Below, in pieces: positions 5,949-47,836 of a DNA stretch of 64,000 nucleotides. Location: assembly GCA_045633565.1 (NCBI GenBank), contig JAZQYO010000026.1, forward strand, positions 915-64,914. Direction: 5' to 3'. Source of the DNA: Clostridia bacterium (GTDB taxonomy: Bacteria > Bacillota > Clostridia > RUG12999). The translations under genes were made by a program, and so were the position numbers. Within the stretch, counting starts at the first letter, position 1, and each line of letters starts with the position of its first letter. The notes under the pieces are model-generated. The model was not told the origin of the DNA. It worked only from the letters and a program-made list of their open reading frames with translations, and searched no databases.

Positions 5949-8768
5949 TTATTCTTTAAAGAGCCATTTAATTTCTTCATAGGAAAGCGAGGCAAGCATT
6001 GTTTCCCCTGTTTCAAGAACGCTGTCCACCATATCCTGTTTAAGTTTTTTAAGCTCACAGATTTTTTCTTCTATAGTGCCGGTGGCAATAAGCTTTGTCA
6101 CCTGGACCACCTTTGTCTGCCCAATTCTGTGGGCGCGGTCTGTTGCCTGGTTTTCCACCGCCGGATTCCACCACGGGTCATAGTGAATAACCATATCCGC
6201 ACCGGTCAGGTTAAGCCCCGTTCCGCCTGCACGCAGGGAAACAAGGAATATATCGCACATTCCCTCATTAAATGATTTTACCATGTTAAATCTCTGCTCA
6301 CTTTTGGTACTGCCGTCAAGATAATAGTGGCTTATTCCCATTTCAGAAAGCATATCGGAAATCATGCCCAGCATACTTGTAAACTGTGAGAAAATAAGTA
6401 TTCTGTGTCCTGCCTGAATTCCCGATTCAACTATGTCTTTCAAAAGATTAAGCTTGCCGCTTTCACCGTCATAATTTTCGATAAATAATGACGGGTGACA
6501 GCAAAGCTGACGCAGTCTTGTTAAAAGTGCAAGAATTCTTATACGATTTTTCTCAAACTCACCATTGTCGCCAAGCAGGAATACCTCCTCTTTGGCTTTT
6601 TCCGCAAAACCGATGTAAAGCTTCTTTTGTTCTTCGGTAAGCTCGCAGGGCAGATAGCTTTCAATTTTTTCGGGAAGCTCTGCCATAACCTCGCTTTTCA
6701 GTCTTCTGAGTATAAACGGACGGATATGCTTTTGCAGCATACCAAGTGCCTCTTTATCTTTTTCTTTTACAATGGGAAGTTCATAAACCGCCCTGAATTT
6801 ATGTCTGCTGTAAAGATATCCGGGCATGACAAAATCAAACACCGACCAAAGCTCTAAAAGTGTGTTTTCAAGCGGTGTGCCGGTAAGTGCAAAAAAGCTG
6901 TCCGCTTTTATCTGTTTAACAACTTTGGCACTTAAGGTGTTGGGGTTTTTAATATGCTGCGCCTCATCTATAAAGCAATATGCAAACTCTGTATCTGAAT
7001 AAAGATTTAAATCGTTTCTCAAAAGTCCGTAAGAGGTTATCGCAAAATGCGCATCCGCAATATTTTCCACTGCCTGCTCACGCATTTGCGGGCTTCCGCT
7101 TAATATTACCGTTTTAGCCTCAGGCGCAAACTTTGCAATTTCCGACGACCAGTTGAATATAAGCGAAGTGGGCACTACTATAAGTGTAGGCTTTTTATTA
7201 TTTTCATATTCGCTCATGACAAATGCTATGGTCTGCAGGGTTTTACCAAGTCCCATTTCGTCTGCTAAAATCCCGCCAAAACCAAGCTCTGCCAGAGATT
7301 TCATCCATTTAACACCCGTTTTCTGATATGGTCTTAAAACACTGTCAATATGCGGGGGGATTTCCACTTCAGTTTCACTTTTTTTAAATCTTTTCACAAA
7401 TTCCCTGAATTTGTCATCTCCGCTGATTTTAATGGCAGAATCACCCAAATCTTCAAGGAAAAAGGCACGTGCGAGACTTACCGTTCCGCCTGCCCTGTCT
7501 GCCTCCACATTTTCAAGCAGCTTTGCCGCCTGAGAAAGCGGTTTTGCGGAAAGGTTTACAAATGACCCCGATTTTAAGTGATAAAACTTTCTTTTTTCAC
7601 GAACTGCGTCCATTATATCGGCAAGCTCTTCATCATCTATACCTTCAATGGACAAATTAAATTCCAGCATATTTCCGGCGCCAAGGCTGACGCCGCCGTT
7701 ACCTTTTGTAGGGGTAACCACTTCTAAATTAAACCTGTCCGAATAAAAAATCTCAGACAGTTCTTTCATCTGAAAAATTCCTTCGCTCAAAAAATCGTAC
7801 AGCTTGTACTCATCTGACAGATATAAAACACCCTCCTCGGGCATAAATCCGAGACTTGCCGCAAGGCGGATAAATTCATTTTCCTTTCGCACGTCACGTA
7901 TGAGGATTTTTTCTCCCTGTGCAGGCTTTTCGCCAAGGAAATGATTGAATTCTTCACCACCATAGCAAAATCTCACCGTTGCCGAAACGGTGCCGTAATC
8001 TGTTCTGTCCAGATATGTTTTAATTTTAAGCTGACCTACCGTTACATCCTTCTTGATAGTGCTGTCAATTTCCACATGCCCTATCTGTCGAACAAAGGGA
8101 AATACCCTTGTTATAACGTCATACTTGTCCTCATTTTTAAAAACAATACTACCATCTGATGCGGCTTCTTTCAGCCGGGCAATTATTTGGGCATGGGCTC
8201 TTTTTAAAACATGAATGCTTCCTTCAAAGAAGATAACATCACAAGCTTTTGTAAGTGGCACAATACTTCCCAGTTTGTCGCAACGCAGAATTATATACCC
8301 GCCCTGCTTTAAAGCTTCAAAGGAAAGAGCCGGAAGGACAGCTGCCACACTTATGTTACCGGACATTCCTCCGATTATTTCTGTTTCTTCACCGCAGAGC
8401 TGCTGCATAACCGGCAGAATATACTTCTCAGGTAGTCTGACCTCTCTGCCGGACGGCATATTTTCGCCAAAAATCACCGTCATCAGGTTTATAAATCCCA
8501 AAATGTTCCGAGTGAATTCTACTCTTCCGGGATTAAATGTAAAACCCTTGCCGAATTTTATCGGCTCGCCTGATTTAAGCATTTTAAAAATATGCGCAAA
8601 TTCTTTTACCGAATAAAGTCTGGATGTCCCGATTTTCAGGCTGAGAAATAGTCCGTCATCATTTATTCTGAGCACAGGAACAAGTCTTACAGTCTGAGGC
8701 TGTCCACCCGGTGTCATGGTTGAAAATGCCGATATTAAATTTTTGGATTTGTCCGAATGGGCAGTCAT
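5949..8768 (-). CDS. SNF2/RAD54-family DEAD-like helicase (bacterial YwqA/RapA-like), 939 aa
   Basis: SNF2_N motifs (LADEMGLGKTLQTIAF, DEAQHIKN) and helicase-C motifs (LVSLRAGGTGLNLTGADMVIHYDPWWNPAVENQATDRAHRIGQ) in the C-terminal half; long N-terminal region. Confidence 0.85.
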   Translation of the reverse strand: MTAHSDKSKNLISAFSTMTPGGQPQTVRLVPVLRINDDGLFLSLKIGTSRLYSVKEFAHIFKMLKSGEPIKFGKGFTFNPGRVEFTRNILGFINLMTVIFGENMPSGREVRLPEKYILPVMQQLCGEETEIIGGMSGNISVAAVLPALSFEALKQGGYIILRCDKLGSIVPLTKACDVIFFEGSIHVLKRAHAQIIARLKEAASDGSIVFKNEDKYDVITRVFPFVRQIGHVEIDSTIKKDVTVGQLKIKTYLDRTDYGTVSATVRFCYGGEEFNHFLGEKPAQGEKILIRDVRKENEFIRLAASLGFMPEEGVLYLSDEYKLYDFLSEGIFQMKELSEIFYSDRFNLEVVTPTKGNGGVSLGAGNMLEFNLSIEGIDDEELADIMDAVREKRKFYHLKSGSFVNLSAKPLSQAAKLLENVEADRAGGTVSLARAFFLEDLGDSAIKISGDDKFREFVKRFKKSETEVEIPPHIDSVLRPYQKTGVKWMKSLAELGFGGILADEMGLGKTLQTIAFVMSEYENNKKPTLIVVPTSLIFNWSSEIAKFAPEAKTVILSGSPQMREQAVENIADAHFAITSYGLLRNDLNLYSDTEFAYCFIDEAQHIKNPNTLSAKVVKQIKADSFFALTGTPLENTLLELWSVFDFVMPGYLYSRHKFRAVYELPIVKEKDKEALGMLQKHIRPFILRRLKSEVMAELPEKIESYLPCELTEEQKKLYIGFAEKAKEEVFLLGDNGEFEKNRIRILALLTRLRQLCCHPSLFIENYDGESGKLNLLKDIVESGIQAGHRILIFSQFTSMLGMISDMLSEMGISHYYLDGSTKSEQRFNMVKSFNEGMCDIFLVSLRAGGTGLNLTGADMVIHYDPWWNPAVENQATDRAHRIGQTKVVQVTKLIATGTIEEKICELKKLKQDMVDSVLETGETMLASLSYEEIKWLFKE

Positions 8769-24838: not shown

Positions 24839-24925
24839 GCGGATGTGGCGGAATTGGCAGACGCGCTAGCTTCAGGTGCTAGTGAAAGCAATTTCATGCA
24901 GGTTCAAGTCCTGTCATCCGCACCA
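24839..24925 (+). tRNA. tRNA-Leu (anticodon CAG), class II with long variable arm, CCA encoded
   Basis: Acceptor GCGGATG/CATCCGC, anticodon stem CTAGC/GCTAG with loop TTCAGGT, variable arm TGAAAGCAATTTCATGC, T arm AGGTTCAAGTCCT, 3' ACCA. Confidence 0.9.
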
Positions 24926-24930
24926 AACAG

Positions 24931-24977
24931 TAGAAATCCGAACCTTGTACCAATTGGTGAAGGGTTCGGATTTTTAT
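24931..24977 (+). terminator. tRNA operon terminator (GAAATCCGAACC ... GGTTCGGATTTTTATT)
   Basis: Long hairpin plus T-run directly after the tRNA-Leu CCA end. Confidence 0.6.
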
Positions 24978-25025
24978 TATATCTCGACTATCCTAACTTT
25001 AATAGTAAACTTAAATAGCATAAAA

Positions 25026-25049
25026 GCACTTGCATTCTTCTGCAAGTGC
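25026..25049. terminator. Bidirectional terminator hairpin AAAA-GCACTTGC-attcttct-GCAAGTGC-TTTT downstream of the RT gene
   Basis: Its 8-bp stem is identical to the stem that flanks the 277-bp element copy at 54312-54610, making it look like an unoccupied copy of that element's insertion site. Confidence 0.6.
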
Positions 25050-25053
25050 TTTT

Positions 25054-26025
25054 CTAATTTACTTTGTAGTTTTTATCAAATGCATATTTCTTTATCGTCG
25101 GAAATATTGACGAATCAACTTGTTGAGCCGCAACAACTAACCCTCTTAATCTACGTCTACTTTCTGTATCTTCAGGATTCTGTTTTAACTTTTCAAATTC
25201 ATCTTTTATATTTTTTCTCATTGAATTTCTGACGGAGACTTTTCCGGTTTTATTTATAACGGCACCAGTTATAACCTTTGGGTAAAGCTTTGAATAAGAT
25301 ACTTCTTTACCTGCCGATAACTGATACCCATATTTTTTCACAATTAATTTAATTTTAGTCTTGATTCGGTTTGATATTACATTCTTTGACGAAAAAGTAA
25401 CATCATCAACATAAATGGTCATAACCATACCATTATTATCACACAATCGTTGCAATTCGTCAAACATTTTATGATTTACCATATAAGAAAGTATTTGACT
25501 TGTCGGAGAACCGGAAATTAAATGATTTCTTGTTGTAACGCCTTTAACATTTAAGAACTCATTTATTTTATCTATATCTTTAACATTTGCAACATCTATA
25601 TCTACAGTTGATATATTTGTCAGAAACTCTGCTATATCTGATGAGGTTCGTAGCTCATCCTTAAAAAAAGAATAAACTCTTTCGCGTGGAATGCTTGGAA
25701 AGAATGCTGTAAAATCTATTTTGTATACATATTTGTTCCCTTTATGCCAATAAGCATTTTGAGCATATGACTTTCCCTTTACACCCGAAAATACATTGTC
25801 AGGCACTACAATAGCATATAATAATTTTTTTACTCTTGATTGAATTTCTTTTAATATATCGTCTGGTTTTTCTATAATCCTAGGCTTCACAGTTTCATCT
25901 ATGTATGGTTCAATTAACGAGCATACATATTTTTGTTCAAAAATGTGGTTGTCTGATATGTTCAAATAATATTTTAATAATTTTTTAGAATGAAGTTGAA
26001 ACAACTTACAGTTTGTATATATCAA
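25054..26025 (-). CDS. Retron-type reverse transcriptase, 323 aa
   Basis: RT motifs PRIIEKPDDILKEIQSRVKKLL (motif 1), FSGVKGKSYAQNAYWH-GNKYVYKIDFTAFFPSI (retron NAxxH plus the D..FF.S box), LISGSPTSQIL (QG.P.SP-like), IYVDDVTF (YxDD), GYQLSAGKEV, and PKVITGAVIN (retron VTG region). Closely parallels Ec86 RT. TTG start with GAGGTG RBS. Confidence 0.85.
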   Translation of the reverse strand: MIYTNCKLFQLHSKKLLKYYLNISDNHIFEQKYVCSLIEPYIDETVKPRIIEKPDDILKEIQSRVKKLLYAIVVPDNVFSGVKGKSYAQNAYWHKGNKYVYKIDFTAFFPSIPRERVYSFFKDELRTSSDIAEFLTNISTVDIDVANVKDIDKINEFLNVKGVTTRNHLISGSPTSQILSYMVNHKMFDELQRLCDNNGMVMTIYVDDVTFSSKNVISNRIKTKIKLIVKKYGYQLSAGKEVSYSKLYPKVITGAVINKTGKVSVRNSMRKNIKDEFEKLKQNPEDTESRRRLRGLVVAAQQVDSSIFPTIKKYAFDKNYKVN

Positions 26026-26061
26026 CAGGTTAACACCTCATTATTTTTAAGTGTGCTGGTA

Positions 26062-26247
26062 TTAGTAGTTTTCTGCTATGCTAATTAACAAACGGATAAC
26101 ATTAGCACGCAGTTCAGGACTACAAAATGATACAACCAGTGTTAGGCATACAATAGCGATGAGTGTCATTACCAAAGATTTGCCATCAATAGAAAATGTA
26201 TTACCACTAAGAATGTTAATGGTAATTTTTTTATCCGCTTTCTTCAC
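26062..26247 (-). CDS. Small single-TM protein, 61 aa, co-transcribed upstream of the RT; candidate retron effector or accessory protein
   Basis: GTG start with strong RBS AAGGAGGTG 7 nt upstream; one hydrophobic helix LVMTLIAIVCLTLVVSF with positively charged flanks. Confidence 0.5.
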   Translation of the reverse strand: MKKADKKITINILSGNTFSIDGKSLVMTLIAIVCLTLVVSFCSPELRANVIRLLISIAENY

Positions 26248-26262
26248 GAATTTTCACCTCCT

Positions 26263-26561
26263 TGTTATTTTTGGCCTCAAACAAAAGTTTAAGGACTCCC
26301 CAATCCTCTAATAACAAAGAGATAATAGCCGTATACCAATAACACCAGCACATTCTAACTCCCCATATATTAATGGAGATTATTCTACACTACAACATTC
26401 ATCACCATATCAATCGTTATAGTTATATTTTCTATAAGAATAAACGAGTGTATGATATAAAGTGTGTCTGCTGTTGTAAAAATGCATCCATGCTTTCACA
26501 CGATGCCGCCCACAAAAATTATGAGCCACATTGGGAGTAAGTCTGACTATTTTTACACTGG
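26263..26561 (-). ncRNA. About 300-nt untranslated leader of the small-ORF/RT operon; candidate retron msr-msd-like non-coding RNA
   Basis: Transcript start inferred from the promoter at 26568-26596. Contains CTTACTCCCAA (26540-26530) that can pair with GGGGAGTTAG (26363-26354) or GGGGAGTCCT (26300-26291), plus several local hairpins. No ORF of 60 aa or more. Confidence 0.3.
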
Positions 26562-26567
26562 TATATT

Positions 26568-26596
26568 CATTATATCATAAAAGTTGTTGAAATTCA
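26568..26596 (-). promoter_or_regulatory. Near-consensus sigma-A promoter TTGAAT-17-TATAAT driving the leader, small ORF and RT
   Basis: Minus-strand cttgaatttcaacaacttttatgatataatg. Confidence 0.5.
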
Positions 26597-26698
26597 AGAT
26601 TTTAACTAAAATATAGATACTTTTTTATCCGCACATTCGTCAAATTAAATGCCTTCTGATAAAATGAAGATACCAAATTTAAAGGAGGCGTTCACGCA

Positions 26699-27082
26699 AT
26701 GAAGGAAAAATTTATTGAAAACGGAATTGAGTATGTAAGAAACGGCGATTACTACATTCCAAACCTAAAAGCACCTGAAGGAACTTACAACATCGGCAAG
26801 TATGGCAGGTTGCACTCAATATTTATTAAAGAAAATCGCCCAACAGTTTACTCAATGAAAATGCTCAACGGAACTTGGCTTGCATATCTTGAAGAAATTG
26901 ACACAACTGCAAAGGAAATGATTGATAAGCTCATAAAAGATATGGCGGTCCAGCAAGGAATCACTGAAGAACTCAAAGCAAAAGACCAAATTGCGTGGGT
27001 GGGTGCTATGAACAACATTCGCCACTCAGCAGAAGAATTTGTATTGCGAGATTTTGTCTATTCGATGGAGGTACAAAAATGA
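26699..27082 (+). CDS. TnpV-like transposon-associated protein
   Basis: MKEKFIENGIEYVRNGDYYIPNLKAPEG..IGKYGRLHSIFIKENRPTVYSMKMLNGTWLAYLEEID...ITEELKAKDQIAWVGAMNNIRHSAEEFVLRDFVY follows the TnpV family pattern (GDY.IP.L, IG.YGR, EH.P, ..G.L..HL.EID, VTEELKA.DQM.WV..MNNI). RBS AAAGGAGG. Confidence 0.65.
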   Translation: MKEKFIENGIEYVRNGDYYIPNLKAPEGTYNIGKYGRLHSIFIKENRPTVYSMKMLNGTWLAYLEEIDTTAKEMIDKLIKDMAVQQGITEELKAKDQIAWVGAMNNIRHSAEEFVLRDFVYSMEVQK

Positions 27083-27375
27083 GCTTTCTTGATGAATTAT
27101 ATTACGGTAATATCAACCCAAATGAAAATCGAAACAGAAAACCTCTTCCTTATGAAAAAGCTGTGAGAACCTTTTCTGATATTGAAAGTAAACTGTCAAA
27201 GGAATTAAATGGAGAAAATTTGAAACTTTTTAATGAGCTTGTAAATGCAAGTGATGAAATAAGTGCTACAAGCGGCGTTGAAAATTTCAAAACAGGATTC
27301 AGACTTGGAATTATGATGATGTGCGACAGCTTATTGTTTGATAACAGCACCATCCTAAAAGATATTAAGTTTTAA
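27079..27375 (+). CDS. Hypothetical protein (MSFLDELYYGNINPNE...), 98 aa, translationally coupled to the tnpV-like gene
   Basis: ATGA start/stop overlap; RBS GGAGG. This N-terminal motif is, from memory, common next to tnpV-like genes in Firmicutes mobile elements. Confidence 0.5.
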   Translation: MSFLDELYYGNINPNENRNRKPLPYEKAVRTFSDIESKLSKELNGENLKLFNELVNASDEISATSGVENFKTGFRLGIMMMCDSLLFDNSTILKDIKF

Positions 27376-28204: not shown

Positions 28205-30016
28205 TTATTTATCCAAGTAATCCATAAATTCTTTGCCGGTAATTGTTTCTTTTTCGTATAAATGTAAACTTAATTCAGTCAATTTTTCTTTGTTTGCTTC
28301 TAAAAGTTTTATTGCATCATTGTGAGCAGACTTAATAATTGATAAAACTTCTTTGTCAATTTTTGTAGCAGTTTCTAATGAGCAATTCAAACCATATTCT
28401 GTTTGTAGATACTGAGAACTTTCTGTACTTAAAGCCATCATATCAAACTCGTCACTCATACCGAACCTTGTAACCATTCCACGAGCAATTTGAGTTGCTT
28501 TTTCCATATCATTTGCGGCTCCGGTTGTATAATAGCCGTATATCACTTCTTCCGCAGCACGACCTGCAGTTAAAGCCACAATTCTATTATACAAATCTTC
28601 TCGACTGTATAGCACTTTGTCTGCATCATCAATTTGCATTGTATATCCAAGCGCACCTGATGTTCTAGGAACAATAGTAATTTTATGTACGGGCGTTGAC
28701 TTAGTTAATAACGCAATGGCAAGTGCGTGACCAATCTCATGATATGAAACAATTAATTTATCCTTGTCAGACACTAATGCATTTTTTCTCTGATATCCAA
28801 CGGCAACAACATCTATTGCTTCATCGAAGTCCTCTTGTATAACATAATCTCTTTTCATTTTTACGGCTCTTAAAGCAGCTTCATTTACTATATTGGCAAT
28901 TTCAGCTCCTGATACACCACTCGTTGCTTTTGCGATTAGGTTAAAATCGACTTCACTATGTATTTTAACATTTTTAGTGTGAACTGTCAATATATCCAAT
29001 CTGCCATTATAGTCAGGCAACTCTAACGGAACCCTTCTATCAAATCGACCAGGTCTTAGTAAAGCTTTATCTAATGATTCAGGGCGATTTGTAGCAGCAA
29101 GTATAACGATATTACTTTTATCATTAAACCCATCCATTTCAATAAGTAATTGATTTAATGTTTGCTCTCTTTCGTCATTACCCGTATTATTTACACCACT
29201 GCCATCACGTTTTTTACCAATAGTATCTATTTCGTCAATAAAAATAATACACGGTGCTTTTTCTCTTGCTTGTTGAAATAACTTTCTTACTTTTGCAGCT
29301 CCCATTCCTACATACATTTCAACAAATGCAGAACCCGAAATAGAAAAGAAAGGAACATTCGCTTCACCTGCAACAGCTTTTGCCATTAATGTTTTTCCCG
29401 TTCCCGGTGGTCCTACCAACAGAACACCCTTCGGAATTTTAGCACCGATTGAATTGTATTTATCAGAATCATGTAAATAATCAACAATTTCAAGCAAAGT
29501 TTCTTTAGCTTCGTCTTGCCCTGCCACATCTGCAAATGTAGTTTCACAGTTTTCAATCACATCAAAGTTCTTGTCATCAAATCTAAGCTTTGTAGATTCC
29601 CAAAAGTTTTTGGTGCCATCTTGTTTTGTGATTTTTGAGATCCCTTTAAACAACGAAAGAACAACAAACCACGGAAGTATCCATTGCAAAAAGAAGTTTC
29701 TTGATTTTGTTGTTTTAGACTTCTCAGTTTTGTCATATACAACATTTTCTGTTTCTTCTAATCTTGAAATTAATCGTTCATCAGTTTCCAATTTTGCTAC
29801 TTCAAAAGCATTGTTTTCTTTGGAGTTGGTATAATATATTAATTTATCATCATGTATTTGAACTTCGGTTATAACTTTATTGTCCAAAGAATTAATAAAC
29901 TCACTGTATTCAACTTTAGTTTTGTTCTCCCCAACATTGGGGAGAACAAACATATCGAATACGATGACACTTATGGTCAATATGCACCAAATTATTACCT
30001 TTCCATATTTTTTCAT
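28205..30016 (-). CDS. ftsH: ATP-dependent zinc metalloprotease FtsH (accessory paralog in the AT-rich island)
   Basis: Two N-terminal TM helices, AAA+ Walker [19 protein letters not shown], Walker [16 protein letters not shown]41 HEIGHAL zinc site; 603 aa. Confidence 0.9.
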
Positions 30017-42557: not shown

Positions 42558-43397
42558 TTACCACCTTAAAAGCCCGAGTTTTTGGATTTGCCTACGGTGG
42601 ACCTCGCCCGTACTCATCGTGTAAATCCTTGTAGTATTTACTGATGAGTGTCCTAAAATATCGGCAAGTCTTACGATATCTTTCTGCAAGCTGTAATAAG
42701 TTCTTGCAAAAAGATGTCTAAAACTGTGAGGGTACACTTTATCCTTTGATACTCCAGCAATTTCACATAACGCTTTTAACATCTTCCATATATGGCTTCT
42801 GTCAAGAGGCTTACCATTACGGCTCACGAAAACGGAGCCGTTTTTTATATTGTGTTCCCGAATATATCCCTTTAACATTTTACAAAGCTCTTTAGGAAGA
42901 ATTACAATACGCATTTTGCCTTTGCAATTTATTACCGCTTGTCCCGAATGAACGGCTGATGTAGTAATATAGCGTAATTCACTTACACGGATACCTGTAC
43001 TCGCTATGGTTTGTATCAGGTAATAAAGCCTTTGATTTTTCTTATCATTTGCCGCCGTGAGTAATCGCTCATATTCCGCTTTTGTCAGTTCCTTGTCTTT
43101 GCTTGAAAATATCTGCCTTTGTATTTTTAGTGCCTTTATCCGTATATCATGCCATTCCATAAATGCAAAGAAGCTATTAAGGGAAGATATTGCCGCATTG
43201 ACACTTGCAGGAGCATATTTTTCACAAAGTTCCTTTTTATACTCCAAAGCCAATACCTTTGTTACTTCCTGACCGCACAGCCAAGCCATAAAAAAGGTTA
43301 TATCACGAATATATTTTTCTATGGTATTTTCACTCTTTTCCTCCTCAATTAGATAATTTTTAAAGCTCAAAATAAGCTCATTTGTGATTTTTCTCAT
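42558..43397 (-). CDS. Tyrosine site-specific recombinase (phage-integrase/Xer-like), 279 aa
   Basis: N-terminal SAM-like domain; C-terminal catalytic box HSFRHLFARTYYSLQKDIVRLADILGHSSVNTTRIY (R...H..R...Y). Confidence 0.85.
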   Translation of the reverse strand: MRKITNELILSFKNYLIEEEKSENTIEKYIRDITFFMAWLCGQEVTKVLALEYKKELCEKYAPASVNAAISSLNSFFAFMEWHDIRIKALKIQRQIFSSKDKELTKAEYERLLTAANDKKNQRLYYLIQTIASTGIRVSELRYITTSAVHSGQAVINCKGKMRIVILPKELCKMLKGYIREHNIKNGSVFVSRNGKPLDRSHIWKMLKALCEIAGVSKDKVYPHSFRHLFARTYYSLQKDIVRLADILGHSSVNTTRIYTMSTGEVHRRQIQKLGLLRW

Positions 43398-43602: not shown

Positions 43603-45828
43603 TTAATAATATTTTTTTATTTCTTTAATTAATTCACTCTCATCCACATCATTAGGTACAAAATCTGTCCTAACATGCTCACCTGTAATCAAATAAGTTT
43701 GCCACGCATCTAATGCCGCCATGTAATCTTCATCTAATGTAGATAGGTTTGAATATTTTCCAACATAACAGTTTCCTGCATCCCAGGATTCATGACTTAC
43801 GGGATATGTATATCCATAACCATAATCTCTGATAACCTTTATGTATCCATCTTCGTCTATAATTAATTGATTGTGAACTCTATCGTCAGCTTTTTGCATA
43901 GCATTTTTTAGTTCTTCTTTTGTAAACAGATGCGTTGGTTTCTTTTGCCCTTGTTTAAATTCAATAGTAAACACACGTATTATCGGTTCATCATAGCCGT
44001 TGTCCCTACATAGACTGCCAACTAATTGATTAATATTGTTACTTATTTCAATAGCTGCTTCTCTGTTGGACACCCAATAACACTCATTAGAATTATCTGC
44101 GTTTTGCCTTCTAATAAATCCATCTTTGCACAAATAAAGGTGTTCCTCACACAATATATCAGAAAAATCTATTGTTCTTTCTAGAGCAAAAACAAATAAA
44201 AACTTACAACTATCACCAACATTATCTTCAACCAATAAATCTTTAAAACACCATTCTTCATAATTGTTTTCTATGAAGTCATCAGGGTAATTGTTTTTAT
44301 CGTTCGCTTTTTCTTCTTCAAAAACAAAAGGATTTTTGTCAAAAATGCGTGAGCGCAACACTTTTTCTTCGGAAAAACCTTTTGATACTGCGACTTGAGT
44401 TATATCAATTAGGCGTTCAATATATTTTCTAAATTCGTCACTAGTACATTGTCCATGCCTTCCATCATATGTTCCATTGATATGGTTGTACGGACCACCT
44501 TTTAGAACAAAAAGAAATTTGCCCCTCAAATACCTACAGAGAGTTTTAAATCCTTCGGGGAGCGGTGTTCCTTCATCATAATCATAAACACCATACTGAC
44601 TATATTGAGCAGATACATAATTTCCCGGATAATCTTCTACAAGTGTTTCTCTATCATATACATCAGCAAAAATCGGTTCTAATTCTTCGAGTTCAAGCAA
44701 AAAATAATTCCATGTATACTTTTCTGCAAAGGACTCATAAATAAGACATTTTGGTTTGCATAAATAACAGATTCCCAATGTATCATATACATAAATACAT
44801 CCGTCTTCGTTAGCTTTTTCGGCTTTCTTAAAATCCAATCCGCCTTTAGTTGATAATAGCATATGATTATATGCGGGAGAAGTACCTACTATATTCAAAA
44901 CCTCAATAATTTTGTCAAGATTTCGCCATACTGCACTTTCTTGCCCAAACGGAAATAAATATTTATTTAAAAATTCCCAATCGCTTTTTTGTGAAAGGTC
45001 ATCGTCATCTAATATAGATATATAATTTTCTAAAGCACTTTTAAACTGCTGTATGGTTGGTCTTTCTTCAGGGCTATTATTTGTGGATTTTTGTAATAAA
45101 TCTTCTAGTTCTACCAAGTGTATCATTTGAAATTTATCAATAAATCTTAAGCCATGTTGTTTATCGTTAAAATTATAAACTCCTTCAAATCCTTTTTCTT
45201 CGCCTGATAATATAATCCATAGCGTCTTAGCCAAAGAATACACATCTGCTTTTTTACCATCTGAATGTTTGGGATCTCTCTTCATCTCCGGTGCCATAGT
45301 GAAAATTGCACCTAAAGCTTTGTCAGAGCGAGTAAGGGCATTATTACTTTCAGGGAATTCAACTAACCCGAAATCCCCGAAGCAAAAACAATTATCATAA
45401 TAGTATAAGTTAGCAGGTTTTATATCTCTGTGAGCTATATTTTTTTGATGAAGTTCCGAAAGAGTTTGGGATAGTTGAATAAAAGCCGATACAACCGTTG
45501 CTATAAACTCTTTTGTATCACTATCATCTTTATGTAAAACATCAGTAATAGGTTGTGCGATGGGCATTACATATTGATATTTTCTATAGGAATAATCCAA
45601 AATAGGCAACACGCCACTAATATCTTTACATTGAAGCATTATCTTTATTTCATCAATAAAGCGAAGCTTGGGCTCTCTTTTCTTCTTGGTCAAAACTTTC
45701 AAAGCATATATATTGTTATTATTTTGATTTCTAACCTTATATACTTTAGCATTTCCACCTCCACCTAATGGCACATTTTCAATTAAGCTGTATTTTTTAT
45801 TCCATACTTTTATATATTCATCATTCAT
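43603..45828 (-). CDS. Ser/Thr protein kinase with long C-terminal domain of unknown function, 741 aa
   Basis: Glycine loop LGGGGNAKVYKV, VAIK-like YALKVL, catalytic loop HRDIKPANL, DFG, APE (MAPE). Confidence 0.8.
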   Translation of the reverse strand: MNDEYIKVWNKKYSLIENVPLGGGGNAKVYKVRNQNNNNIYALKVLTKKKREPKLRFIDEIKIMLQCKDISGVLPILDYSYRKYQYVMPIAQPITDVLHKDDSDTKEFIATVVSAFIQLSQTLSELHQKNIAHRDIKPANLYYYDNCFCFGDFGLVEFPESNNALTRSDKALGAIFTMAPEMKRDPKHSDGKKADVYSLAKTLWIILSGEEKGFEGVYNFNDKQHGLRFIDKFQMIHLVELEDLLQKSTNNSPEERPTIQQFKSALENYISILDDDDLSQKSDWEFLNKYLFPFGQESAVWRNLDKIIEVLNIVGTSPAYNHMLLSTKGGLDFKKAEKANEDGCIYVYDTLGICYLCKPKCLIYESFAEKYTWNYFLLELEELEPIFADVYDRETLVEDYPGNYVSAQYSQYGVYDYDEGTPLPEGFKTLCRYLRGKFLFVLKGGPYNHINGTYDGRHGQCTSDEFRKYIERLIDITQVAVSKGFSEEKVLRSRIFDKNPFVFEEEKANDKNNYPDDFIENNYEEWCFKDLLVEDNVGDSCKFLFVFALERTIDFSDILCEEHLYLCKDGFIRRQNADNSNECYWVSNREAAIEISNNINQLVGSLCRDNGYDEPIIRVFTIEFKQGQKKPTHLFTKEELKNAMQKADDRVHNQLIIDEDGYIKVIRDYGYGYTYPVSHESWDAGNCYVGKYSNLSTLDEDYMAALDAWQTYLITGEHVRTDFVPNDVDESELIKEIKKYY

Positions 45829-46690: not shown

Positions 46691-47836
46691 TTACTCTTTT
46701 TTGATTCTGTTATTTACTTTTTGATATAAATTATCTCTTTCCATATCTCTTTGATACTCCTCAAAAGTATATTTTTTCTTATAATCGTATCGGGTTTTAA
46801 GTTCTTTTGCTAATTCTTTTGCTGCCTCTGCAAAATCTTCGCTTATTTTTCCTCTTGAAGCTTCGGTGCGGATGCAGGCACAACGCTTGGTATAAATATC
46901 CTTTATCGGATCATTTCCTGCAAGCTCTTTTCTTCCTACCATAGCCGCATACTGTCTGCAAGTGAGTTCTTTTCCGTCTGTTATATCAAGCGGAGCAAAT
47001 CCCGTACAGTATTTTTGCTTACGCATGCTTTCCATAAGGAAATATGTTTCGCACACTTCACATTGACGGGGATAATGTCCAAATGAAAGACCTTCAAAAA
47101 AGTCTGTAAGTATAAAGCTGTAAAAAGTTCTGAAATGAAGCCTTTTTACAATAATTTTCTTTTTGCCTTTTGTTATAGTTGCATATTCCGCTGCAATACC
47201 ATACCTTTCAACGCCGAATGTTTCATATGCGTGGGTTATAAGTTTGTTCTCGTTGTAATGCTCGGATAAATCCTCTAATCCCCATACAAACTCGGTTAGT
47301 TTTTCAAAAGCCTTTATCATATCGTTTCCGATATTTTCATAAAACTGCAAAAGTGCTTTTACACGGGAAAGTAGTTTGTTTGCTTCTTTGGAGAACTCTG
47401 CATATCCTTTGGGAAGTATGTCAAGGGACATTGCACCCTTATCTTTTAAAGAAACCTTCGCTCTCTGCTGATAGTAATTTAAAATATAATCCGCATTTTC
47501 TTTTGTAAAAGTTTCTGCTATCAGTTTTTTCTCAGCTTCAATATCTAAATACTGAAACGGACTAATACACGGAAGAATATCTAGGATATTTAATATTTCT
47601 TTTCCGGCTCTTACAAAATCGTAATCGTTTATATACCCTTTTTCCATTTGGGAGGATAGCATCCAATTATCATAACGCATTGATGCTATTCTTGCTCCGT
47701 TGTCATTTTCTTCATATTGATTAAGAAAATCTACCGCAAAACTGCCTATAAGAAACTTGTTACTTTTGATATATACGAACTTATCTCTGTAATCGGCAGT
47801 AAAAAATTTAATTTTATCAGGCATCTTTATCACCAC
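46691..47836 (-). CDS. Hypothetical protein with C-terminal multi-Cys zinc-ribbon region, 381 aa
   Basis: QCEVCETYF...YCTGF...LTCRQY...KRCACIR cysteine pairs; first gene of a three-gene minus-strand operon with the sigma factor and kinase. Confidence 0.5.
   Translation of the reverse strand: MVIKMPDKIKFFTADYRDKFVYIKSNKFLIGSFAVDFLNQYEENDNGARIASMRYDNWMLSSQMEKGYINDYDFVRAGKEILNILDILPCISPFQYLDIEAEKKLIAETFTKENADYILNYYQQRAKVSLKDKGAMSLDILPKGYAEFSKEANKLLSRVKALLQFYENIGNDMIKAFEKLTEFVWGLEDLSEHYNENKLITHAYETFGVERYGIAAEYATITKGKKKIIVKRLHFRTFYSFILTDFFEGLSFGHYPRQCEVCETYFLMESMRKQKYCTGFAPLDITDGKELTCRQYAAMVGRKELAGNDPIKDIYTKRCACIRTEASRGKISEDFAEAAKELAKELKTRYDYKKKYTFEEYQRDMERDNLYQKVNNRIKKE

Follow-up and report, generated by a model that had tools for sequence, protein, structure and literature searches.

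Can a Type VI retron do without its helix-turn-helix (HTH) protein? The question is raised by a reverse transcriptase (RT) operon in a 64,000-nt stretch of DNA from a Clostridia bacterium (GenBank assembly GCA_045633565.1, contig JAZQYO010000026.1, positions 915 to 64,914), which we analyzed as a whole and refer to as the window. Over 25022-26597, read on the minus strand, the operon comprises a promoter, a leader of ~315 nt, a ribosome-binding site (RBS), the open reading frame (ORF) of a small protein (SP), the RT ORF, and a terminator. An earlier reading of the sequence alone, here called the original prediction, had proposed the locus as a candidate for a previously undescribed retron variant with a mini-membrane effector, and the features it listed are all present, at or within 1-2 nt of where it placed them. 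We found an RT of the Type VI class, a leader RNA whose structure is conserved and covaries among relatives, a hydrophobic SP, and no HTH gene. Our reading, to which we give a probability of roughly 70%, is that the locus is a self-contained two-protein Type VI retron that works through an RNA-gated SP toxin.

Type VI retrons were defined as clade-3 RTs linked to a Cro/C1-type HTH protein, plus small auxiliary proteins (Mestre 2020, PMC7736814). The order of noncoding RNA (ncRNA), SP, and RT is the defining layout of the type (Mestre 2020, PMC7736814), so the gene order that the original prediction took to be unusual is the normal one. Two members have been studied mechanistically. In Retron-Vpa2 from Vibrio parahaemolyticus, the msr-msd and the SP coding sequence (CDS) form one "hybrid RNA", SP is a toxin that is translationally repressed, multicopy single-stranded DNA (msDNA) accumulates on infection and is required for the derepression of SP, and the HTH protein holds msDNA low (Zhang et al., bioRxiv 10.1101/2025.10.22.683967). 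In Retron-Sen3 from Salmonella, the HTH protein is the protein antitoxin of SP, and the HTH-SP pair is a toxin-antitoxin module independent of the RT and the ncRNA; an ncRNA, pairing of two inverted repeats (IR1-IR2) around SP, and structural selection on the SP CDS have also been described (Garcia-Rodriguez et al., bioRxiv 10.64898/2026.04.27.721009).

Classification of the RT

The best PADLOC model for the RT is RT_VI (3.3e-71, 238 bits; the runner-up class reaches 123 bits). The matches listed, the best 25 of 43, are all retron RT classes, and RT_IV is not among these 25. For calibration we used three plasmid loci with annotated HTH and RT genes (Acinetobacter pACICU1, Staphylococcus haemolyticus pShVSI35_2, and Acetobacter), whose RTs score 255-263 bits on RT_VI and whose upstream genes score 100-125 bits on the PADLOC model HTH_VI. 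On RT_VI, five further RTs from the window's lineage reach 203-247 bits. Pfam recognizes only the generic domain RVT_1, and the best NCBIfam matches are retron families, below their cut-offs. The PDB sequence matches are all retron RTs. With an AlphaFold2 model of the RT (predicted local distance difference test [pLDDT] 84.7), the top 18 Foldseek matches are retron RT structures, and those of group II introns, DRT2, and diversity-generating retroelements (DGRs) rank below them.

The motifs NAYWH, DFTAFFPS, YVDD, and VITG are present. Residues N90, A91, H94, D104, Y205, D207, D208, T253, and G254 are invariant even against canonical HTH-linked RTs, and the retron-specific motifs NAxxH, VTG/ITG, and YxDD are invariant across relatives. 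The retron signatures noted in the original prediction were thus upheld by classification, with RT_VI as the best class rather than a group II intron, DGR, or Abi clade. On these sequence comparisons, we assign the RT to the Type VI class of retron RTs (retron RT clade 3), the tree of its relatives being unrooted and built without Type IV or Type V outgroups. Assignment to a group II intron, DGR, Abi, or defense-associated RT (DRT) was rejected on the PADLOC, PDB sequence, and Foldseek matches.

A 24-aa insertion, IDVANVKDIDKINEFLNVKGVTTR, occupies residues ~143-167 (25525-25599) between the TVD and NHLxSGSP segments and contains a predicted helix at 151-160. It occurs in all the HTH-less RTs examined and is absent from HTH-linked Type VI RTs. 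Fusion of an HTH domain to the RT N terminus was also considered and rejected, since the N terminus aligns with ordinary retron RTs and the extra length is this internal insertion.

Absence of the HTH gene across the lineage

Homology searches with the RT returned 491 sequences at E <= 1e-10, mostly metagenomic, and a scan of one genome per species yielded 72 loci with 37-77% RT identity. The exact RT sequence of the window had no record when looked up in public assemblies. Most of the 72 are from Clostridia (Oscillospiraceae, Faecalibacterium, Ruminococcus, Caproiciproducens, and Clostridium methylpentosum), with a few from Bacilli. Six predicted viral contigs from IMG/VR (L081-L086) bear the HTH-less system, its 5' RNA domain spaced from the RT as expected, and the system is therefore also phage- or prophage-borne.

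To look for the missing partner, we built a hidden Markov model (HMM) from three HTH_VI proteins and ran it on six-frame translations of the window and all loci. No match was found next to the RT (within ~4 kb) in the window, the 72 genome loci, or the 6 viral loci. At canonical Type VI loci, the same HMM finds the HTH gene at about -280 to -355 from the RT in 38 of 38 assessable cases, and true HTH_VI partners score 77-165 bits. The Cro/C1-type HTH protein (cluster 2_1; HTH_VI) that marks Type VI, upstream of or overlapping the RT, is thus absent from this position. Two loci, L070 and L071, have very weak HTH matches ~900 nt upstream (E ~5e-4). The only HTH_VI-HMM match in the window is a generic XRE-type ORF at ~4094 on the minus strand (WIN|-|59907; 32 bits, E 3e-8 in a small local database), which is separated from the retron by 21 kb and whose score falls far short of those of true HTH_VI partners.

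In the unrooted neighbor-joining tree of RTs, a single split sets apart 71 of the 74 HTH-less RTs; of the remaining three, two come from truncated loci and one from a locus with a weak HTH match. When flanking ORFs were clustered, RT and SP alone were conserved around the loci. The Mestre 2020 (PMC7736814) Type VI set has an HTH protein in ~78% of its entries and none in ~22%. The family definition therefore tolerates the absence of HTH, though both studied mechanisms depend on it, and some HTH-less members may already be catalogued among that ~22%. We found no description of an HTH-less variant in the Vpa2 and Sen3 mechanistic preprints or in full-text literature searches. Judged from these comparisons, the locus appears to represent a lineage-wide HTH-less Type VI variant in gut Clostridia. 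The absent HTH gene is the oddity that the original prediction missed.

A small hydrophobic protein upstream of the RT

In 53 of the 72 genome loci, an SP homologue precedes the RT and ends 23-57 nt before its start; at the most distant loci, the SP position is taken by small hydrophobic ORFs of other families. The SP RBS is invariant across loci. An AlphaFold2 model of SP (pLDDT 74.8) consists of a beta-hairpin (residues 7-21), a hydrophobic helix (22-40), and a second helix (44-60). The maximum 19-residue Kyte-Doolittle (KD) hydropathy of SP is 2.61; the median maximum is 2.75 on the HTH-less branch versus 1.31 for 21 canonical SP candidates. SP has no Pfam, PADLOC, or NCBIfam match. A profile of the SP family found no canonical SP (11 canonical SP candidates were compared, Vpa2 SP not among them) and, in a search of 1.84 billion representatives, picked up just 42 clusters (43-109 aa). 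The published SP clusters, too, are dissimilar to one another. By analogy with the characterized systems, SP is a predicted membrane toxin. Of the claim of a previously undescribed variant with a mini-membrane effector, the hydrophobic effector ORF and the retron operon stand; "undescribed" was overstated, because an RNA-embedded effector ORF has been published for Vpa2 and Sen3.

An N-terminal motif of SP (residues 8-21, 26185-26226; consensus VVIINGDNNKV), modeled as the beta-hairpin, is also found in small ORFs that precede the most distant HTH-less RTs (L063-L065; e.g., VVVTIIGDNNTVVFDG) and are not otherwise related to SP; it may be the conserved functional core of the effectors. The codon entropy of the SP gene is 1.08 at third positions versus 0.93 at first positions, and 0.77 versus 0.74 in the C-terminal part. 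This barely elevated third-position variability is compatible with joint constraints from protein and RNA structure, such as have been reported for Sen3-type SP genes.

Structure and conservation of the hybrid RNA

We compared the RNA in an alignment of 38 non-redundant relatives and took the conservation profile from 53 loci. The leader is strongly conserved in nucleotides save for a central variable block. The original prediction had described some 300 nt without any ORF; the ~315 nt contain only short ORFs whose frames are not conserved, and leader and small ORF recur at homologous loci, as would not be seen for unconserved spacer. Two leader ORFs (40 aa, 26231-26353; 39 aa, 26410-26529) were considered as genes and rejected, as among relatives they lie in differing frames, which indels shift, and have a low-complexity look.

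The 538-nt transcript folds with z = -6.1 relative to shuffles. The 54 consensus pairs are 95.0% paired, compared to 89.8% in shuffles (reached by 0 of 500) and 33-49% when the alignment is slid, and 32 pairs are doubly changed compared to 13 in shuffles (again 0 of 500). The expectation of a structured RNA was borne out by this fold and by the covariation across the 38 sequences. In particular, the long-range complementary pair CTTACTCCCAA / GGGGAGTTAG, which had been likened to retron a1/a2, forms an a1/a2 stem in 38 of 38 relatives with lineage-specific sequences, and a1 fits the a2 of its own locus better than those of other loci (permutation 0/500). The two msr stem-loops, SL1 and SL2, show compensatory changes in 16 of their 17 pairs. 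The sequence of the variable region is not conserved; in most of the 38 relatives it forms a hairpin of ~100-140 nt (z = -3.2 in the window, z <= -2 in about half of the relatives).

The helix that encloses the SP gene, IR1:IR2, is 98.8% paired, with six of nine pairs compensated. It was also found independently by a repeat finder, and its complementarity in the window reaches 28 nt at 79%. The anti-RBS helix is 98.8% paired in the 38 sequences and almost invariant; two of its pairs are compensated, both largely from one sequence. The SP RBS is paired in the minimum-free-energy fold. Four of the five pairs of the inner hairpin of the riboregulator are compensated, and a further helix lies within the SP CDS (26232-26239 with 26091-26098). 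The noncoding spacer TAATACCAGCACACTTAAAAATAATGAGGTG after the SP stop is among the most conserved stretches of the 53-locus alignment.

The second GGGGAGT copy noted in the original prediction is real and co-varies with the first. The direct repeat (DR; 26358-26365 / 26295-26302) is an exact 8-nt repeat in the window and measures 6-10 nt in 38 of 38 sequences, with 15 variants changing together; its two copies, DR1 and DR2, co-vary with each other and with a1 (permutations 0/500, 0/500, and 0/2000). The 5' element of the transcript (26555-26562) can pair with the SP CDS (26135-26142), an exact 8-nt inverted repeat in the window. Five pairs of this helix show double changes, and its covariation is 0.402 versus 0.253 in shuffles, none of 500 of which reach it. 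This helix crosses IR1:IR2; the two must therefore coexist as a pseudoknot or replace one another in alternative states. Wobble pairing would also allow the 5' element to anneal to IR1 (97.7% paired), but here the changes are one-sided only and the shuffle control was uninformative; we retain this second pairing as no more than a possibility.

When searched with a covariance model built from the 5' domain, the viral contigs yield independent copies (E 5e-20 to 0.01), and the distant HTH-less loci are detected weakly, at the right position. In a permissive-E Rfam scan of the leader, only tRNA was significant and the rest was at chance level; the published hybrid-RNA models are not in Rfam.

Layout and genomic setting of the cassette

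The features of the locus are collected in Table 1. The predicted transcription start lies near 26562-26563. The 53-locus alignment shows conservation of the -10 box, TATGATATAAT; promoter-like sites in the region are not enriched overall (13 versus 9.5 expected). A 36-nt spacer separates the SP stop from the RT start. No ORF lies downstream of the RT, and the terminator, which is kept in L001, L076, and L078, adjoins it directly. From promoter to terminator the cassette measures 1.6 kb.

Table 1. Positions of the retron features and the adjacent tRNA gene in the window
Feature	Position	Strand	Remarks
tRNA-Leu(CAG)	24839-24925	+	ARAGORN and Rfam; convergent with the operon; marks the island edge
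Intrinsic terminator	25022-25053	-	Operon end; 13-bp stem, then T-rich tail
RT ORF	25054-26025	-	323 aa, TTG start
IR2	26053-26061	-	UACCAGCAC; 3' arm, directly after the SP stop codon
SP ORF	26062-26247	-	61 aa, GTG start
Riboregulator	26255-26321	-	Anti-RBS strand, DR2, inner hairpin, RBS
SP RBS	26255-26263	-	AAGGAGGTG (= AAGGAGGUG); upstream of the GTG start
Inner hairpin	26275-26293	-	Inside the riboregulator
DR2	26293-26303	-	Riboregulator copy of the direct repeat
Anti-RBS strand	26310-26321	-	CUCUUUGUUAUU; predicted to pair with 26258-26269
IR1	26343-26351	-	GUGCUGGUG; 5' arm of the helix enclosing the SP gene
a2 arm = DR1	26354-26365	-	UGGGGAGUUAGA; pairs with a1; direct-repeat copy
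Variable region, candidate msd	26369-26483	-	Candidate reverse-transcription template; long imperfect hairpin
msr SL2	26484-26506	-	RNAalifold
msr SL1	26508-26526	-	RNAalifold; with SL2 spans 26484-26526
a1 arm	26532-26545	-	CAGACUUACUCCCA; closes msr-msd with a2
5' element	26555-26563	-	UACCAGUGU; pairs with SP coding region 26135-26142
Promoter	26569-26597	-	TTGAAT-17-(TG)TATAAT; consensus scan; upstream TG

The GC content is 0.29-0.34 over ~25-47 kb versus 0.39-0.45 in the flanks. This profile and the tRNA-Leu gene confirm the placement of the operon at the tRNA-linked edge of an AT-rich island. A TnpV gene (PF14198; 26699-27082) and a DUF6809 gene, a pair that spans 26699-27375 on the plus strand, diverge from the retron promoter. 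Six related loci likewise have this pair close to the cassette, on one side or the other, which suggests that the retron travels with a TnpV-type mobile element. Near-identical relatives keep TnpV, retron, terminator, and tRNA-Leu, and the DNA past the tRNA differs. The tRNA-Leu gene and a hairpin between it and the RT terminator (24839-25021) are kept with the cassette in close relatives; adjacency to tRNA-Leu is also seen in L001 (2433-2519) and in L076 and L078 (about 6342-6428). The tRNA of L078 is a different isoacceptor (anticodon TAG). In ~15 of 59 loci, a tRNA or tmRNA gene (Pro, Val, Ser, Trp, Leu, or tmRNA) lies within a few hundred nucleotides. Because of this TnpV and tRNA adjacency and the differing DNA past the tRNA, we place the cassette at the edge of integrative elements, a typical position of defense genes. 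The cassette, from promoter to terminator only, moves between differing genomic contexts.

The island itself (25000-47800, ~22 kb) carries genes for an FtsH-like protease (28205-30016), an SLH-domain protein, MacB/FtsX, HlyD, and ABC transporters, a tyrosine recombinase (42558-43397), a Ser/Thr kinase (43603-45828), and a DUF6076 protein (46691-47836). A direct repeat of the tRNA-Leu 3' end was sought as the far att site of the island, and none was found within 3 mismatches.

Proposed mechanism and alternative explanations

From Vpa2 and Sen3 we infer msDNA synthesis, the toxicity of SP, the trigger, and a function in defense; on that analogy, the locus would work as follows. A single promoter would give a hybrid RNA of ~510 nt, followed by the RT gene. 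The hybrid RNA would hold the msr-msd, made of the a1/a2 stem, the two msr stem-loops, and the long variable msd hairpin, and, 3' of it, a riboregulator that would bury the SP Shine-Dalgarno sequence. The RT would copy the msd into msDNA. In the uninfected cell, the RBS would be paired and SP silent, with msDNA presumably kept low by host nucleases. On phage infection, msDNA would accumulate, and the strand complementary to the direct repeat, which could be the msDNA 5' end or a released a1 arm, would pair with DR2. The RBS would then open, and SP would be made, enter the membrane, and halt the cell before the phage cycle completes (abortive infection). Because neither the Vpa2 brake nor the Sen3 antitoxin exists without an HTH protein, RNA-level repression, msDNA turnover, or the RT would have to suffice. 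The safety catch would be the RNA fold, perhaps also the RT itself, and turnover of msDNA by host nucleases may contribute.

The sharper proposal, that the pseudoknotted hybrid RNA alone gates the membrane toxin, is one we put forward tentatively and consider rather doubtful. On this proposal, a1, a2/DR1, and a decoy DR2 would change in step, the 5' end would clamp the SP CDS, and reverse transcription or the release of a1 would turn on translation, with no protein antitoxin or repressor involved.

Several observations weigh against an RNA-gated Type VI retron. DR1 lies inside a2, which a classical retron leaves uncopied into msDNA, and the Vpa2 model, in which msDNA pairs with the riboregulator repeat, is for that reason not directly transferable. 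The residue after a1 is G in about two-thirds of the sequences and A in the window, with an invariant UGG 3-5 nt later, and the priming guanosine cannot be located after a1 from the sequences. The anti-RBS helix is too invariant for covariation to support or refute it. The covariance model of the 5' domain has no match in canonical Type VI loci, so that homology of the RNAs is unproven. Type VI retrons tested in Escherichia coli are mostly without detectable msDNA at rest, and msDNA activity therefore cannot be assumed. Finally, the RT tree has neither a root nor the Type IV or Type V outgroups.

Of the alternatives to a two-protein, RNA-gated retron, the one that survives best, which we nevertheless regard as improbable, is a toxin-antitoxin-like addiction module that maintains a mobile element, in which the RNA or an RT-RNA complex would be the antitoxin to SP and defense would be secondary or absent. 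The position of the cassette at a mobile-element edge beside TnpV, tRNA, or tmRNA genes is in keeping with this, the combination of a small hydrophobic predicted toxin and an RBS predicted to be sequestered recalls type I toxin-antitoxin systems, and the Sen3 HTH-SP pair works as a toxin-antitoxin without RT or ncRNA. A pure RNA antitoxin, however, would need neither an intact retron RT nor a template hairpin, and both are conserved here; moreover, all tested retron relatives, Type VI included, are anti-phage systems. Addiction and defense roles are in any case not mutually exclusive.

Less probable again is an ordinary Type VI retron served in trans by an HTH partner from another place in the genome. 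Both characterized systems need their HTH protein for viability or repression, and the XRE-type ORF ~21 kb away in the window (32 bits) and the very weak matches ~900 nt upstream in L070 and L071 might be cited as candidates. Yet the HMM that leaves the ~4 kb around the RT empty of HTH_VI-like ORFs at all 72 genome and 6 viral loci succeeds at every assessable canonical locus, and the distant match in the window has a generic XRE score, far under 77-165 bits. The cassette also moves from promoter to terminator only and would therefore leave a trans partner behind.

The locus is very unlikely to be a decaying or domesticated remnant that has lost its HTH gene and whose RT and RNA no longer form a working defense. 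A component that is essential in the studied relatives is indeed missing, and msDNA is only inferred. Against decay, more than 70 species-level genomes (RT identity 37-77%) have intact RT and SP ORFs, and the catalytic residues do not vary; compensatory changes have preserved the RNA helices; the promoter, the RBS, and the terminator are all conserved; and six copies are found on predicted viral contigs. The overall pattern indicates purifying selection on all three parts. An RT of another defense class (Abi, UG/DRT, or DGR) or of a group II intron with an unrelated spacer as its leader, for which one could cite the generic RVT_1 match in Pfam and the lack of an Rfam family for the leader, is refuted by the conserved, structured leader and by PADLOC (best 25 of 43), NCBIfam, PDB, and Foldseek, all of which place retrons first.

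Significance

Type VI is the one retron type in which the reverse-transcribed DNA reportedly switches the toxin on rather than holding it off, and the two studied systems differ in how the toxin is restrained: translationally, by RNA and HTH, in Vpa2 versus post-translationally, by HTH, in Sen3. With its RT, RNA architecture, and toxin-like ORF retained and HTH missing, this lineage amounts to a natural deletion experiment on the core mechanism. It also extends the system to abundant gut and rumen anaerobes (Faecalibacterium, Ruminococcus, and Oscillospiraceae) and to their prophages. If gating by RNA alone were true, the locus would be a minimal form of "cDNA-activated translation" immunity, and the HTH protein of Vpa2 and Sen3 would be an add-on rather than part of the core. 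If msDNA-gated translation were true, a 1.6-kb cassette with a clearly delimited riboregulator could be repurposed. What appears to be new here is the lineage-wide absence of HTH, the transmembrane-grade SP, and the extra pseudoknot-type helix; the gene order and the RNA-embedded effector were already published.

Comparison with known systems

The locus, Vpa2, and Sen3 have a common RNA topology, with msr-msd, riboregulator, and coding arms and a 3' end that folds back. In Vpa2, the SP RBS is buried in a stem, as is predicted for the locus. The locus and Vpa2 share a 3' end that, past the SP stop, pairs back beside the msr-msd arm, a short direct repeat whose copies lie in an msr-msd arm and in the riboregulator, and an RT of the same PADLOC class. 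Between SP and RT, Vpa2 encodes an HTH protein, absent from the locus, that represses msDNA accumulation and whose loss is toxic. The SP of the locus has 61 aa with a transmembrane-grade helix and an N-terminal beta-hairpin, DR1 lies in a2 and not in an msd loop, and the host is a Gram-positive anaerobe.

The Sen3/cl2075 lineage resembles the locus in the terminal inverted repeats of its ncRNA and in a long internal hairpin with a variable center; in Sen3, too, IR1-IR2 flanks the SP gene and the SP CDS is under RNA-structural selection. The Sen3 RBS is sequestered, as is predicted for the locus. The Sen3 HTH protein is the SP antitoxin and binds the RT, a layer that is absent in the locus. Relative to Sen3, the locus has IR1:IR2 compensated at six of nine pairs and an extra helix between the 5' end and the CDS that crosses IR1:IR2.

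Canonical HTH-RT Type VI loci, on plasmids and prophages, share with the locus the RT_VI class at similar scores and a small ORF upstream. They differ in that their RTs are ~30% identical to that of the locus and have no 24-aa insertion, and in that an HTH_VI gene overlaps or abuts the RT; their SPs, unlike that of the locus, are of 47-56 aa and amphipathic. Type IV retrons (e.g., Retron-Eco6/Ec48), the sister group within RT clade 3, resemble the locus in having a membrane effector and no DNA-binding partner. Their effector is a protein with two transmembrane (TM) segments encoded downstream of or overlapping the RT, whereas the SP of the locus, a predicted 1-TM protein, is encoded upstream and embedded in the RNA.

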